A DNA stretch of 64,000 bases from Escherichia coli (GTDB lineage Bacteria > Pseudomonadota > Gammaproteobacteria > Enterobacterales > Enterobacteriaceae): the NCBI RefSeq assembly GCF_003790525.1, contig NZ_CP033635.1, one strand, 5' to 3'. The notes under the pieces are model-generated. The model did no database searches, was not told the DNA's origin, and saw only the letters and a list, made by a program, of their open reading frames with translations. A program made the position numbers and the translations under genes. Shown here one piece after another: positions 60,328 through 64,000 of the stretch. Each line of letters begins with the position of its first letter. Position 1 is the stretch's first letter.

Positions 60328-62442
60328 TCAATCAGCCACTAATAGCGGACTAGGGATACCAGATGATGAAACAAACAGCCCTTTTACGGCACGGGTTGCA
60401 GCCACATGCAGTAACGCGCGCTCATTAAATAATGCATCACGCTGTTCAACGGGATCATCGGATGCTAATGCTTTTATTTCCGGCACAACGCCTTCGTTAA
60501 TCCCCACCAGGAACACATACTGGAACTCAAGCCCTTTAATACGGTGCATCGTTGCAACTCGCACGCCTGGGCGTGCATCGCTGTCACCGCTATCATTGCC
60601 TAAATTAAATGTCTCAATTCCGGCGTCATTGAGTGCTGATGCGTAGCGGTCGCAAGCATGTTTAGTACGCGCAGTAATGCAGATATCCTGAGAACGAACC
60701 TGATTCGCCAGCAATGCCTGAATTTGCTTGACGAGTGTTGCAGCCTCTTCTTTGAAATCTGCCGCATGCGTAATCATGGGCTTTTCCCCGTGCAGTAATG
60801 ACAAATAATCATTACTGGTATCCGCTTCGCCATCGAGGTTATCAACCTTCACACCAGTTAACAGCCCAACAGCAAATTGACGCGTCTCTTCTGTGGTCCG
60901 ATAGTTAATCTTCAATTTTTTACTGCGACGACCACGGACGTTAATACCACACTGACCAAGAACGACCTTATTGCGATAAATACGCTGATGCCCATCCCCG
61001 ACAATAAACAGATCGTTGGGCGACTCGGGAACCAGGCTGCGAATAAGAGTAAATGCCGGGGCACCGATATCTTGAGCTTCATCGACGACAATACTGCTAT
61101 AAGGTAGTTGGACCTGCTTTTCTTTAAACAGAACAATAGCCTCATGCATGGCATCGCCCATTTCGCGCAGTTTGGCACGCGCCATTTGTGCTCTGAATTC
61201 TTCGAAAACTGGCCAGATTTTCGCCCGTTGAATACGGGATAACGCTGTACCACGTCCAACCCGGCTGACTTTGAGGTATTCCTCCCGGGTGTAAACCGCA
61301 TTTGGCTGGACAACGCGTTGCCACTCTTCAGCATAGAAATTGTCAGGTAGCCCCAGTTCGGCAGGTGCCTGCTGCAAGGCATAGTTCCAGCATTTACGTC
61401 GCCCTTCATCGCTGTCGTATACCACGCGGAAATCATAACCGTGGCGTTTTAGTTGGTCGCTCATCCAGGCATCAATGTTAACGACGTCAATACGCGCCAT
61501 CTCTTCTCGCGTACACAACCGCTGGAGATTAGCGCGAATATCTGCCGCCAGGTTACGCGTAAAGGTCGTGAAAAGTACCTTCTTACCGGGTTTATCTACC
61601 AGACGCTGAGATAACCACCGCGCACGGTGCATTGCAACAACCGTTTTCCCTGTACCTGCACCGCCCAGTACTCGTACCGGACCATTAGCGGGCGACTCCA
61701 CCAGTTTTCGCTGGCTCGGATGCAGAAATACACGCCATTTTTCTAAAGGCGCATTAAGCATCTGCAACAGCTCCTGTTCATTTTCAACGACATAGAAGCG
61801 ACGTTTACTTCGTTCAATCGCCTCCATAAAGTCGTTGGTATCAACAGGCTCATCACGATGATCGTTAAACTCTTCCAGCACTTCCTGGTAATCCAGCCCT
61901 TCTGCCAGCCAATGCAGGGGTTCCCAGGCTTCTGCTGGCATTATGCTTTCAAGTTGATTAAGCCCGGCTTCATCGGTAAGCGCCATCACCTGATCAATAA
62001 AGACAGGCGGCACACCCAGGGCCAGAATCTGTTCCGCGCTGTAAGCTGCGAAGAGTTTCGGTTTATCAACCACTGTTTCCGCTGCCGGTTTGATATAGCT
62101 AATATCAATAACCTGAATTGCGCCGGTAACCGGGTGAATTGAACAATCATGCCGCCGCGCCCAGTCGTATGCTTCGTCGTGTTTATCCACCCACATCAGC
62201 ATATACAGGGCACCCTGTTCAGGTTTCAGAACAATGCCGCGATAAGTTTGATCGATTCGCACCGAATGGACATTTTTACTGCGCGCATCGTGGATCTTTT
62301 CATAGTTAAGTCCATTACTGGTCGGGTCCTGACGGAATTTGGAGATGAATTCCTGCACCTTTTTTTGCTGTGCTTTTGGGATCCGCGCGAATGCGCCCAG
62401 AAAACCATCAGAAAGTGCCACCTTGGGCGTTTGCACCGTCAT
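60328..62442 (-). CDS. UvrD-like superfamily 1 helicase with a distinct approximately 280 aa N-terminal domain (intact counterpart of the K-12 yjhR remnant?)
   Basis: 704 aa; Walker A VLGGAGTGKTVVAMHRA, Walker B/motif II IVVDEAQDIG, C-terminal UvrD_C-like MHRIKGLEFQYVFLVG; its ATG overlaps the stop of the upstream ORF (ATGA at 62439-62442). Confidence 0.8.
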   Translation of the reverse strand: MTVQTPKVALSDGFLGAFARIPKAQQKKVQEFISKFRQDPTSNGLNYEKIHDARSKNVHSVRIDQTYRGIVLKPEQGALYMLMWVDKHDEAYDWARRHDCSIHPVTGAIQVIDISYIKPAAETVVDKPKLFAAYSAEQILALGVPPVFIDQVMALTDEAGLNQLESIMPAEAWEPLHWLAEGLDYQEVLEEFNDHRDEPVDTNDFMEAIERSKRRFYVVENEQELLQMLNAPLEKWRVFLHPSQRKLVESPANGPVRVLGGAGTGKTVVAMHRARWLSQRLVDKPGKKVLFTTFTRNLAADIRANLQRLCTREEMARIDVVNIDAWMSDQLKRHGYDFRVVYDSDEGRRKCWNYALQQAPAELGLPDNFYAEEWQRVVQPNAVYTREEYLKVSRVGRGTALSRIQRAKIWPVFEEFRAQMARAKLREMGDAMHEAIVLFKEKQVQLPYSSIVVDEAQDIGAPAFTLIRSLVPESPNDLFIVGDGHQRIYRNKVVLGQCGINVRGRRSKKLKINYRTTEETRQFAVGLLTGVKVDNLDGEADTSNDYLSLLHGEKPMITHAADFKEEAATLVKQIQALLANQVRSQDICITARTKHACDRYASALNDAGIETFNLGNDSGDSDARPGVRVATMHRIKGLEFQYVFLVGINEGVVPEIKALASDDPVEQRDALFNERALLHVAATRAVKGLFVSSSGIPSPLLVAD

Positions 62443-64000
62443 TTGTCACCTCCGGACAGATGTTGCAATGTATTTTCGTCAATTGGCCCGAATGCAACGT
62501 GCCAACCCCTGGTTGTGAATAATGGAATAAATTCTTGATTATCAATAATCAATGCCCATTTTTGTGATGGCCAGGCGAGATCGGCTTCCGCAATAATTTC
62601 ACCTTCATCATTTTGCAATTCGTAGCCGAGAGTCGGCGCAGAGAGAGAATGAGACTGAAGCAACGCGATCTCTTCAGCGCTTAATAAGCCAAACTCAATA
62701 ATCTCAGCCCAACTTTCATCAGTCTCTGGTACTGCCTCTGGCGTTGCCGTAACTTTAACGTCAACGCTTTCCTGCGGTAAATGCACGGCTTTACGGCTGG
62801 TAAAGGTCATATCCGGCAGGAACTGTAACAGGTTTACCAGTCGCCAGAAGCCATTGAGTCCCGCTTCATAACCGTCATCCTGCGTATAGCGATCGTCAAA
62901 ACAGATATGCAAACGCAGCCAGCTGCGCATTTGTGCGACACTGGTCGTCGGTTTAATGGCTTGTTGTGGCAACACCGAAGCCAGCTCAATAAATTGCTGC
63001 GATGAGTTACAGCTATCGAGTAAACCACCAAAGACAAACGGTTCGTCTGGCAAAAGCTCTGCTAGCCGCCAGGCTGGCGCGTTTTCCTGCATTTCATAGG
63101 CATACTTTTGTTTCGTTCCCGCGTCCTGTGACTTCTTCACATCCAACCACACCCAGGCATGTGCAGCAGCCATTTTCTGCCATAACTGCGTTCTTCCTCC
63201 CGGATCGGCGAGATAATCCAGCAGCAGTGCAAAACTGTTGCGTTCCCGGAACGACGCTTCAAGGGCCGCAAAGTTGGTATCGTGAAACAGGTTATAAAAC
63301 TTAGGCTGTTTCATATCCGGGTTATGCCCAAGCCCCAGGACATCCTGAACATGTTTAAGCCCAGGCTCTTTGAGATCGGCCCACGTGACTGTCCACACCC
63401 AGAAATTATCGCTATCCCGAATCGCCTGGCGTTTTTGCACATCCTCTGCGACGCTATTTTTGTGAAACGCAAAGCCATCAAGGAAAATAGCTACCGGTTT
63501 AATGGCATCAGACTGCATAAGCGGATATAGCACGTAATCCGGGCGACAAGGGATCCCCACCGCCTCTTTAGCGCCTAAATCCACCTGAGCTTTAAGATGC
63601 CAGCTCATCATCGGTTCGCTGCGGGTGTTAATAATCCACCCAGCGCCCTGATGCGCGTAACTGCGACTGACAATCAGGTTTTTATTTTCTTGCAGGCAGC
63701 TAATAAACCGTTTTTCCAGCTCACTGCCCATCATGGCTTCGAGGGAAATGTTTTTGATGGAATCAATTACCCGTATCGAATCTCTTGCCTGCAAAATTTT
63801 CGCCAGCAAGAGACGCGCCTGATCGCGGGAGACATACTTCATGCGCCCACGGTCACGGTAAGCGTAAACGCAACGATAACAACCATCTTTATGCGTATCA
63901 TGGTTGCAACTGCATTCCACTATCGCCTGATAGGCCAGTTCAAGTAATTTCAGCAAATTGTCGGGAGTGCGCATCAGCTCTTTAAGAGAACCAGTTCCCC
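62439..64000 (-). CDS. C-terminal 520 or more aa of a large protein that begins beyond the window; contains a Cys cluster (DUF1998-like) and a Vsr/DUF559-like endonuclease domain
   Basis: Frame is open through position 64000 (no stop upstream of the listed Met); CSCNHDTHKDGCYRC Cys cluster near 63870-63915; RPDYVLYP ... VAIFLDGFAFH ... KRQAIRDSDNFWVWTVTWADL (about 63400-63555) matches the Vsr-type motif pattern. Confidence 0.7.
   Translation of the reverse strand, partial: GTGSLKELMRTPDNLLKLLELAYQAIVECSCNHDTHKDGCYRCVYAYRDRGRMKYVSRDQARLLLAKILQARDSIRVIDSIKNISLEAMMGSELEKRFISCLQENKNLIVSRSYAHQGAGWIINTRSEPMMSWHLKAQVDLGAKEAVGIPCRPDYVLYPLMQSDAIKPVAIFLDGFAFHKNSVAEDVQKRQAIRDSDNFWVWTVTWADLKEPGLKHVQDVLGLGHNPDMKQPKFYNLFHDTNFAALEASFRERNSFALLLDYLADPGGRTQLWQKMAAAHAWVWLDVKKSQDAGTKQKYAYEMQENAPAWRLAELLPDEPFVFGGLLDSCNSSQQFIELASVLPQQAIKPTTSVAQMRSWLRLHICFDDRYTQDDGYEAGLNGFWRLVNLLQFLPDMTFTSRKAVHLPQESVDVKVTATPEAVPETDESWAEIIEFGLLSAEEIALLQSHSLSAPTLGYELQNDEGEIIAEADLAWPSQKWALIIDNQEFIPLFTTRGWHVAFGPIDENTLQHLSGGDK

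Follow-up and report, generated by a model that had tools for sequence, protein, structure and literature searches.

Two genes at the end of an Escherichia coli SMS-3-5 sequence window are very probably the last two of an ARMADA type II anti-phage operon

Introduction

At one end of a 64,000-nucleotide stretch of Escherichia coli DNA (the window), two minus-strand genes overlap by four nucleotides, the downstream one encoding a helicase and the upstream one, which runs off the window, a candidate nuclease. The question raised by this locus is whether the two genes form a defence system of their own or belong to a larger and already described one. The initial annotation, made from the sequence of the window, had taken them for a self-contained gene pair of unrecognised family. 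ARMADA type II (armABCD) has meanwhile been described under that name, and validated, in two preprints, Bell et al. 2025 (PMC12458937) and Li et al. 2025 (10.1101/2025.09.22.677730). Li et al. list strain SMS-3-5 by name as an ARMADA carrier, and both papers place ARMADA beside Druantia III and Zorya II.

Genomic position and operon structure

The window was 100% identical to NC_010498.1 (E. coli SMS-3-5). The reading of two minus-strand genes overlapping at ATGA was borne out, and a Shine-Dalgarno-like GGAGGTG precedes the overlap (Table 1). The upstream frame is open to the window edge and continues for about 4.8 kb past it; its complete CDS has 6342 nt and no internal stop. Extension of the contig past position 64000 gave a tightly packed, co-directional four-gene operon, armA-armB-armC-armD (22867-39102 on the extended-locus sequence L002). 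The products are, in order, a SNF2 helicase of 952 aa, a PglX-like methyltransferase of 1640 aa, a YprA/DruE-like helicase-nuclease of 2113 aa, of which the window covers no more than the last ~520 aa, and a RelE-UvrD/GajB-like helicase of 704 aa. A gap of 2 nt separates armA from armB, while armB and armC overlap by 1 nt and armC and armD by 4 nt, so that all four genes are under tight translational packing. The supposed pair thus makes up the third and fourth genes of a longer operon, and the order BrxHII/RapA-like SNF2, PglX-like methyltransferase, YprA-like helicase and GajB-like helicase is the strict order of ARMADA II. Upstream of armABCD, at a distance of 223 bp, DruH-DruE form a separate pair, and Druantia III and Zorya II adjoin the ARMADA operon in the SMS-3-5 defence island. 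DNA of the ARMADA locus was present in 525 of the 5426 complete E. coli genomes.

Table 1. Features of the window, with positions (nt), strand and basis of each call.
Feature	Position	Strand	Basis
Degraded IS4-family transposase remnant at island boundary	~58245..59003	+	NCBIfam IS4, 3.2e-5
armD, complete, 704 aa: RelE-like domain (predicted), helical linker, UvrD/GajB-like SF1 helicase	60328..62442	-	profile matches
ArmD UvrD-type helicase core, aa 241-693	60364..61722	-	Pfam UvrD-helicase 7e-23, UvrD_C 4.5e-13
ArmD N-terminal predicted RelE/YoeB-fold domain, aa 1 to ~115	62098..62442	-	AlphaFold and Foldseek
ATGA, overlap of armC stop codon and armD start codon	62439..62442	-	sequence reading
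armC 3' end, ArmC aa 1595-2113 of 2113 and stop codon	62439..64000	-	identity to NC_010498.1
ArmC C-terminal alpha/beta domain, aa 2022-2113	62442..62717	-	homology to ZorE C-terminus
Middle of ArmC tail, aa ~1810-2021: helical segment and alpha/beta domain	62718..63353	-	model secondary structure
Vsr-like PD-(D/E)xK endonuclease domain, ArmC aa ~1687-1809, predicted active	63354..63722	-	
DUF1998/MZB zinc-binding domain, in-window part	63867..64000	-	Pfam MZB PF09369, E 8e-13
Cys4 cluster CSCNHDTHKDGCYRC within DUF1998/MZB	63870-63914	-	inside Pfam MZB match

Agreement with the published ARMADA type II operons

The four genes, their order and their lengths are common to SMS-3-5 and the ARMADA II operons of O157:H7 NCTC 12900/EDL933 and ATCC 8739, except for ArmB, which has 1640 aa in SMS-3-5 and 1644 aa in O157:H7. 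Identity to the O157:H7 orthologues was 100% for ArmA, 99.4% for ArmC, 99.6% for ArmD and 83.9% for ArmB, the ArmB differences being concentrated at aa ~950-1450, a putative target-recognition region. The eight residues that Bell et al. (PMC12458937) mutated were all found in SMS-3-5 at identical numbers and in the expected motifs: ArmA K136 and D236, ArmC K110 and D234, ArmD K266 (Walker A) and D454 (Walker B), and ArmB N971 (NPPW) and G605. The chromosomal site by nanS and fim is also shared between SMS-3-5 and O157:H7, whereas a UDG-like gene of 216 aa follows armD in SMS-3-5 and is absent from O157:H7; this ORF had no match in NCBIfam, PHROGs or PADLOC. The two genes are therefore very probably the 3' end of armC and the complete armD, which close an intact ARMADA type II operon. 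The system is not new, having been named and experimentally validated in the two 2025 preprints, and the full-length proteins fit this named architecture instead of an unrecognised family. Its anti-phage role, proposed from the window, agrees with the protection published for the orthologues (PMC12458937; 10.1101/2025.09.22.677730). That no named match had been found is explained by libraries such as PADLOC-DB 2023, which predate ARMADA and split it into DrmD-, type IIG-, DruE- and GajB-like matches.

Domain structure of ArmC

By its profile matches, ArmC appears to be a YprA-family protein with a DEAD/DEAH core and the DUF1998 Cys4, nearest to DruE yet distinct by model score. The four-Cys cluster noticed in the window lies inside Pfam MZB/DUF1998, and in the family alignment C29, C31, C40 and C43 of the ArmC fragment are each at least 90% conserved. 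The Vsr-like nuclease that the initial annotation proposed agrees with the predicted fold, which has a conserved Asp/His set and is predicted to be active; ArmC would thus carry the C-terminal, predicted-active Vsr-type nuclease on a YprA helicase that defines ARMADA II. Sequence searches of the tail gave less: a Pfam search did not find Vsr/DUF559, its sole match being DUF1998; a PDB sequence search returned nothing at E<=1; and hhalign, run with the ArmC family profile on E. coli Vsr, matched the correct motif with a probability of just 22%. No catalytic signature and no Pfam match were found in the middle region of the tail (aa ~1810-2021), and, according to Bell et al. (PMC12458937), the active Vsr domain is followed by EEP-like and Vsr-like domains that are inactivated. 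In an exhaustive representative search, the architecture of the tail was kept in 1145 representative clusters, and the matches were mostly proteins of ~2100 aa aligned at the same position.

The C-terminal domain of ArmC was matched by the ZorE2 model of PADLOC (5.8e-9) and the ZorE model of NCBIfam (2e-4), and a BLASTP alignment of 57 aa with SMS-3-5 ZorE showed 40% identity (E 2e-8). ZorE, the effector of Zorya II, is encoded by the island that holds armABCD. The ~90-aa domain common to the two C-termini could be a docking or regulatory module that recruits co-resident systems to a shared DNA intermediate or to each other, a reading that we regard as rather unlikely. Term look-up in two of the papers found no mention of this shared domain.

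Domain structure of ArmD

The downstream protein had been called a UvrD-like SF1 helicase of 704 aa with an unusual N-terminal domain, and both statements hold. The Pfam matches to the core are given in Table 1, and its PDB sequence matches were PcrA, UvrD1 and UvrD; the scores against the housekeeping helicases UvrD, Rep and RecQ were far under the NCBIfam cut-offs. The N-terminal 235 aa have no Pfam family. The AlphaFold model of the N-terminal domain had a pLDDT of 94, and its best Foldseek matches in the PDB were nearly all RelE, YoeB, YafQ and ParE toxins, plus Cami1; the target-normalised TM-score was 0.6-0.78 for single-domain toxins and 0.7-0.78 for the best toxin matches. Some ArmD homologues are labelled RelE by JGI and UniRef. 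Comparison of the N-terminal profile with E. coli YoeB by hhalign was not significant (E 0.18). ArmD is thus predicted, by way of the modelled fold, to combine a RelE/YoeB-like domain with a UvrD helicase. Within the N-terminal domain E48 and R62 never vary and R68, H88 and D89 seldom do, and the domain may be catalytically active.

Comparison with related systems

An alternative, which we consider very improbable, would be to file the operon under DISARM class 1 or Druantia as a variant form and to treat ArmC as a DruE. This filing draws on the matches of ArmA to DrmD (NCBIfam 4e-104; PADLOC DrmD- and BrxHII-like, 1e-99), of ArmB to DrmMI (1e-56; PglX-, DrmMI- and type IIG-like in PADLOC) and of ArmC to the PADLOC models DruE3, DruE1 and DruE2 (4e-104 to 1e-65), and on the DefenseFinder label 'DISARM I-related' (10.1101/2025.09.22.677730). 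ARMADA does have in common with DISARM class 1 (DrmD, DrmMI, DrmA, DrmB, DrmC) the SNF2 helicase, a large methyltransferase acting on adenine, and a helicase of YprA type that bears an OB-CON-DUF1998 module. However, ArmA reached 350 bits against the DrmD cut-off of 610, and no separate DrmA and DrmB were found, their functions being fused into the single 2113-aa ArmC, where helicase and DUF1998 stand together; a Vsr-like nuclease takes the place of the PLD DrmC, no PLD match having been found in the operon, and the RelE-UvrD helicase of the fourth gene is additional, having no counterpart in DISARM or Druantia. The likeness to Druantia III (DruH-DruE) lies in a YprA-family helicase of ~2100 aa with DUF1998 and a C-terminal nuclease, but DruE has tandem PLD domains where ArmC is Vsr-like, its partner is DruH, and Druantia III lacks the methyltransferase, the SNF2 helicase and the UvrD helicase of ARMADA. 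On the DruE3 model ArmC scored 348 bits as against 2180 for the genuine adjacent DruE; the operon also lacks DruH, DruA-D and DruM/F/G, the partners of armC being a SNF2 helicase, a methyltransferase and a UvrD helicase instead of those of Druantia I-III. In the published YprA phylogeny (PMC12458937) ARMADA forms its own clade.

Gabija was considered because GajB models match the helicase core of ArmD (PADLOC, up to 2.6e-36). No GajA-like match was found among the neighbouring proteins with PADLOC, so the OLD-family nuclease of Gabija is missing, and the N-terminal RelE-fold domain predicted for ArmD is absent from GajB. As with the housekeeping helicases, the NCBIfam scores for Gabija, DISARM class 1, Druantia and a stand-alone type IIG enzyme lay far under the cut-offs.

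A stand-alone two-gene nuclease-helicase system of unrecognised family, still less probable than the DISARM or Druantia filing, is refuted by the extended contig. ATGA couples the translation of armC and armD, neither product attains any curated NCBIfam cut-off, and PADLOC 2023 places the two in different systems; against this, the large upstream ORF itself overlaps the methyltransferase gene, which the SNF2 gene immediately precedes, defence is lost on single deletion of each arm gene (PMC12458937; 10.1101/2025.09.22.677730), and the architecture already has a name. That ArmB works by itself as a type IIG restriction-modification enzyme and has unrelated helicase neighbours, as its almost end-to-end coverage by the PADLOC model REase_MTase_IIG (3e-281) would allow, is scarcely credible given the strictly conserved gene order, the overlapping or abutting frames, and the loss of defence in the armA, armC and armD deletions and in the ArmB NPPW mutant (PMC12458937; 10.1101/2025.09.22.677730).

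Island boundary and K-12 yjhR

The operon lies, as had been noticed from the window, in a variable island adjoining an IS remnant, which is of the IS4 family and, aligned as three segments, is 88.9% identical to plasmid-borne IS4 transposase genes that are intact. Homology to K-12 ends at ~58193 (L001 16194), right after nanS, and no leuX-derived att-type direct repeat of at least 11 nt was found in window positions 57000-60400. The suggestion that K-12 retains a remnant of this module in yjhR was not upheld: when ArmA-D were compared with the K-12 locus by tblastn, no match had E<1e-5, and BLASTP E-values were 1.4-9.8 at best. The yjhR product matched positions 812-1135 of the 1136-position Mokosh MkoC profile (3.8e-139), and yjhR is, on this profile match, identified as the last 325 aa of a helicase-PLD protein resembling MkoC of Mokosh type II. 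It is not a remnant of armABCD.

Published function and proposed mechanism

Acting together, the four arm genes protect cells directly and non-abortively against many siphoviruses, T5-like phages and podoviruses, and all four are required, the loss of any one costing defence (PMC12458937; 10.1101/2025.09.22.677730). HK022, Bas18, Bas27 and T5 are among the phages that the O157:H7 system restricts. Phage resistance has been shown for the NCTC 12900, ATCC 8739 and EDL933 orthologues (PMC12458937; 10.1101/2025.09.22.677730), and synergy with Druantia III has been published for near-identical orthologues. [quoted passage not shown] The ArmD Walker B mutant lost defence only partially (Bell et al., PMC12458937) and the armD deletion had a milder phenotype (Li et al., 10.1101/2025.09.22.677730), suggesting that ArmD is the least indispensable component of ARMADA. 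Defence by armABCD of SMS-3-5 itself is likely from the near-identity of ArmA, ArmC and ArmD to these orthologues, and is presumed for its ArmB, which shares only ~84% identity with the allele tested from O157:H7 and has the divergent block described above.

Arm deletion mutants, armB included, grew normally without phage (10.1101/2025.09.22.677730), which fits a BREX-like need for the methylase in defence, beyond self-protection. In the mechanism that we propose for ARMADA, ArmB would mark host DNA by sequence-specific N6-adenine methylation, and the SNF2 translocase ArmA would load together with ArmC, acting as a YprA-type 3'-5' translocase with an OB-CON-DUF1998 canopy, onto phage DNA that is unmarked or contains single strands. 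The Vsr-like domain of ArmC would then cut the loaded DNA, and ArmD might unwind or process the nicked DNA, by analogy with GajB in Gabija, with its RelE-like domain possibly serving as an additional sensor or effector. The nuclease activity of the Arm proteins, the methylation motif and the rule that separates self from non-self are, in this scheme, what we infer.

Conclusions

As a discovery the locus adds little, the system having been named, found protective and mapped to SMS-3-5 in 2025. Its value is one of calibration: a reading of the raw sequence spotted a helicase-nuclease defence module that 2023-era libraries break up into parts resembling DISARM, Druantia and Gabija. The questions that it poses for ARMADA are the methylation target of ArmB, the substrate of the Vsr-like nuclease and the role of the RelE-like domain of ArmD, and D1748, D1768 and H1773 of ArmC and E48, R62, R68 and H88 of ArmD are direct mutational targets.

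Identification of the locus as an ARMADA type II system

The system is already known: a full-text literature search retrieved two preprints that define exactly this four-gene architecture, which Bell et al. 2025 (PMC12458937) named ARMADA type II (armABCD), and the same system is carried by EDL933 (Li et al. 2025, doi 10.1101/2025.09.22.677730). The initial annotation, which had proposed a two-gene nuclease-helicase defence pair of unrecognised family, was right in kind about defence. The family, however, already has a name and experimental validation in the preprints, and the RefSeq extension makes the unit four abutting genes, not two. 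The sequence features it described were all present in the window: the ATGA overlap, the 704-aa ORF, and an upstream (armC) frame that runs without a stop to the window edge and encodes CSCNHDTHKDGCYRC, RPDYVLYP and IFLDGFAFH. Window 58000-64000 was 100% identical to E. coli SMS-3-5 (NC_010498.1, 4935429-4941429). The contig extension it had called for recovered, in the RefSeq record beyond the window, the full upstream ORF without an internal stop, of which the window holds only the last 520 codons, and armC was the third of four co-directional genes.

Features of the armABCD locus and its surroundings (L001 and L002, SMS-3-5 loci; L003, K-12 locus)
Feature	Position	Strand	Size	Remark
Gene 1 (armA), DEAD/DEAH (SNF2) helicase			952 aa	2-nt gap to gene 2
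Gene 2 (armB), class I SAM-dependent DNA methyltransferase	L001 26781-31703	minus	1640 aa	1-nt overlap with gene 3; beyond window
Gene 3 (armC), helicase-nuclease			2113 aa	ATGA overlap with gene 4
Gene 4 (armD), UvrD-like helicase	window 60328-62442	minus	704 aa	complete; last gene
ATGA (armD ATG over TGA of upstream ORF)	window 62439-62442	minus		GGAGGTG precedes
ArmC aa 2022-2113	window 62442-62717			ZorE-like end
ZorE, Zorya II effector of same island	L002 9288-10388	minus		
Degraded IS4-family transposase remnant	window 58245-59003			island boundary
nanS-like ORF	window 57183-58190	plus	335 aa	uninterrupted
Partial sialate O-acetylesterase pseudogene (RefSeq)	L001 15211-15777			"missing C-terminus"
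ORF convergent with armD	window 59164-59814	plus	216 aa	
yjhR pseudogene	L003 13016-14032			

The four proteins were compared with profiles from PADLOC-DB (2023), NCBIfam and Pfam. PADLOC-DB (2023) and NCBIfam spread them over several different systems: ArmA was DrmD-/BrxHII-like (1e-99; 350 bits against the curated DrmD cut-off of 610), ArmB was type IIG-, DrmMI- and PglX-like, ArmC was DruE-like (4e-104, with a score only one sixth that of the genuine neighbouring DruE), and ArmD was GajB-like (2.6e-36). Pfam placed MZB/DUF1998 on the ArmC Cys cluster (8e-13) and UvrD-helicase and UvrD_C on ArmD. The locus does not fit DISARM class 1, Druantia or Gabija, whose defining features it lacks.

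According to Bell et al. (PMC12458937), ArmA resembles BrxHII/RapA, ArmB is a methyltransferase of the PglX-like type, and ArmC combines a YprA-family helicase with a Vsr-type nuclease at its C-terminus, after which inactivated nuclease-like domains often come. The system blocked 13 of 80 phages as a BAC clone and 30 of 66 in ATCC 8739, with a direct, non-abortive phenotype; defence needed all four arm genes, and Druantia III acted in synergy. Defence was wholly lost with ArmA K136A and D236N, ArmC K110A and D234N, ArmD K266A and ArmB N971A, and partly lost with ArmD D454N and ArmB G605A (PMC12458937). All eight residues have the same numbers in the SMS-3-5 proteins and lie in the expected motifs (GLGK, DEAH, GSGK, DELH, GTGK, VDEAQ, NPPW and GSA). 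In O157:H7 strain 2571 the locus layout was the same, with identities of 100% for ArmA, 99.4% for ArmC and 99.6% for ArmD. The motif residues, the identity to O157:H7, the folds and the conserved tail agree, and the locus thus has all the defining features of ARMADA II that could be tested.

Conserved domains of ArmC and ArmD

In the ArmC tail family, D1768, G1769, H1773, D1780 and R1784 were invariant and D1748 nearly so; the architecture was found in 1145 representative clusters, mostly proteins of about 2100 aa with the match at the same position. The last ~90 aa of ArmC were homologous to the ZorE C-terminus (BLASTP 40% identity over 57 aa, E 2e-8; PADLOC ZorE2 model 5.8e-9; NCBIfam ZorE 2e-4), and a limited term search of a 2026 Druantia III/Zorya II paper did not find this domain sharing.

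ArmD aa 1-235, modelled from a 46-sequence alignment (pLDDT 94), matched almost exclusively the RelE, YoeB, YafQ and ParE toxins and the RelE-like RNase Cami1, with target-normalised TM-scores of 0.6-0.78 against the single-domain toxins. Some metagenomic ArmD homologues already carry the label RelE. Sequence-level support for a YoeB-like catalytic set in this domain was not significant.

Defence island, its boundary and prevalence

The locus around armABCD is a defence island. DruH and DruE of Druantia III (PADLOC, 2541 and 2180 bits) lie directly upstream, 223 bp apart from armABCD. Farther upstream, the island continues with a divergently oriented Zorya II operon and with single genes of the HNH, phosphorothioate-dependent restriction and Wadjet JetD-domain types. 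Within L002 1-9100, the Wadjet JetD-domain protein adjoins a 1478-aa hypothetical protein, and an HNH endonuclease and a restriction endonuclease that binds phosphorothioated DNA are also encoded.

The K-12 and SMS-3-5 chromosomes run collinear from fim up to and including nanS; their homology ends at about window 58193. The IS remnant noted beside the module is real, 88.9% identical in three pieces to intact IS4-family copies. No leuX-derived direct repeat of at least 11 nt occurred in window 57000-60400, so this island end does not form a clean att site, in agreement with the term "immobilised element" used by Bell et al. (PMC12458937). yjhR, previously taken for the K-12 remnant of the module, did not significantly resemble any Arm protein; it matched the last 325 positions of PADLOC Mokosh type II MkoC (3.8e-139) and is the C-terminal ~325 aa of an MkoC-like helicase-PLD protein. 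The variable site does contain a relic of defence genes in K-12, but one that stems from another system. Depending on the strain, the nanS hotspot is thus occupied by different defence systems, either intact or as relics.

At nanS itself, RefSeq gives only the partial pseudogene where the nanS-like ORF is uninterrupted. The 216-aa ORF had a weak uracil-DNA-glycosylase-superfamily match (Pfam UDG, E 0.004), is a "uracil-DNA glycosylase family protein" in some RefSeq annotations, and had no PADLOC, NCBIfam or PHROGs match; only 92 of 5426 genomes had it intact, and O157:H7 lacks it through a clean 648-bp indel.

Of 5426 complete E. coli genomes, 532 contained DNA of the armC end plus armD at ≥95% identity, 525 of them with ≥80% of the query covered; 22 of the 539 matching places were plasmid-borne.

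Predicted mechanism and the ArmB allele

The present analysis yielded domain folds and conserved putative catalytic residues; the preprint results rest on orthologues ≥99% identical, ArmB excepted (PMC12458937; 10.1101/2025.09.22.677730). In these preprints the ATPase and methyltransferase motifs were required, and deletion mutants, including that of armB, grew normally without phage, which argues against classical restriction-modification with a methylase only to prevent self-cleavage. The pattern instead resembles BREX. In the predicted mechanism, ArmB would label the cell's own DNA, and phage DNA that is unmarked or bears ssDNA would be engaged by the SNF2 and YprA motors and cut by ArmC through its Vsr-like domain. 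ArmD would process the product, its RelE-like domain possibly serving as an auxiliary sensor or effector.

Relative to the O157:H7 allele, ArmB had 83.9% identity (99.4-100% for the other three proteins), with divergence confined to aa ~950-1450 (30-64% identity per 50-aa block) and starting close to NPPW (residue 971). The stretch has the appearance of an exchanged target-recognition region and, if so, would imply strain-specific methylation motifs.
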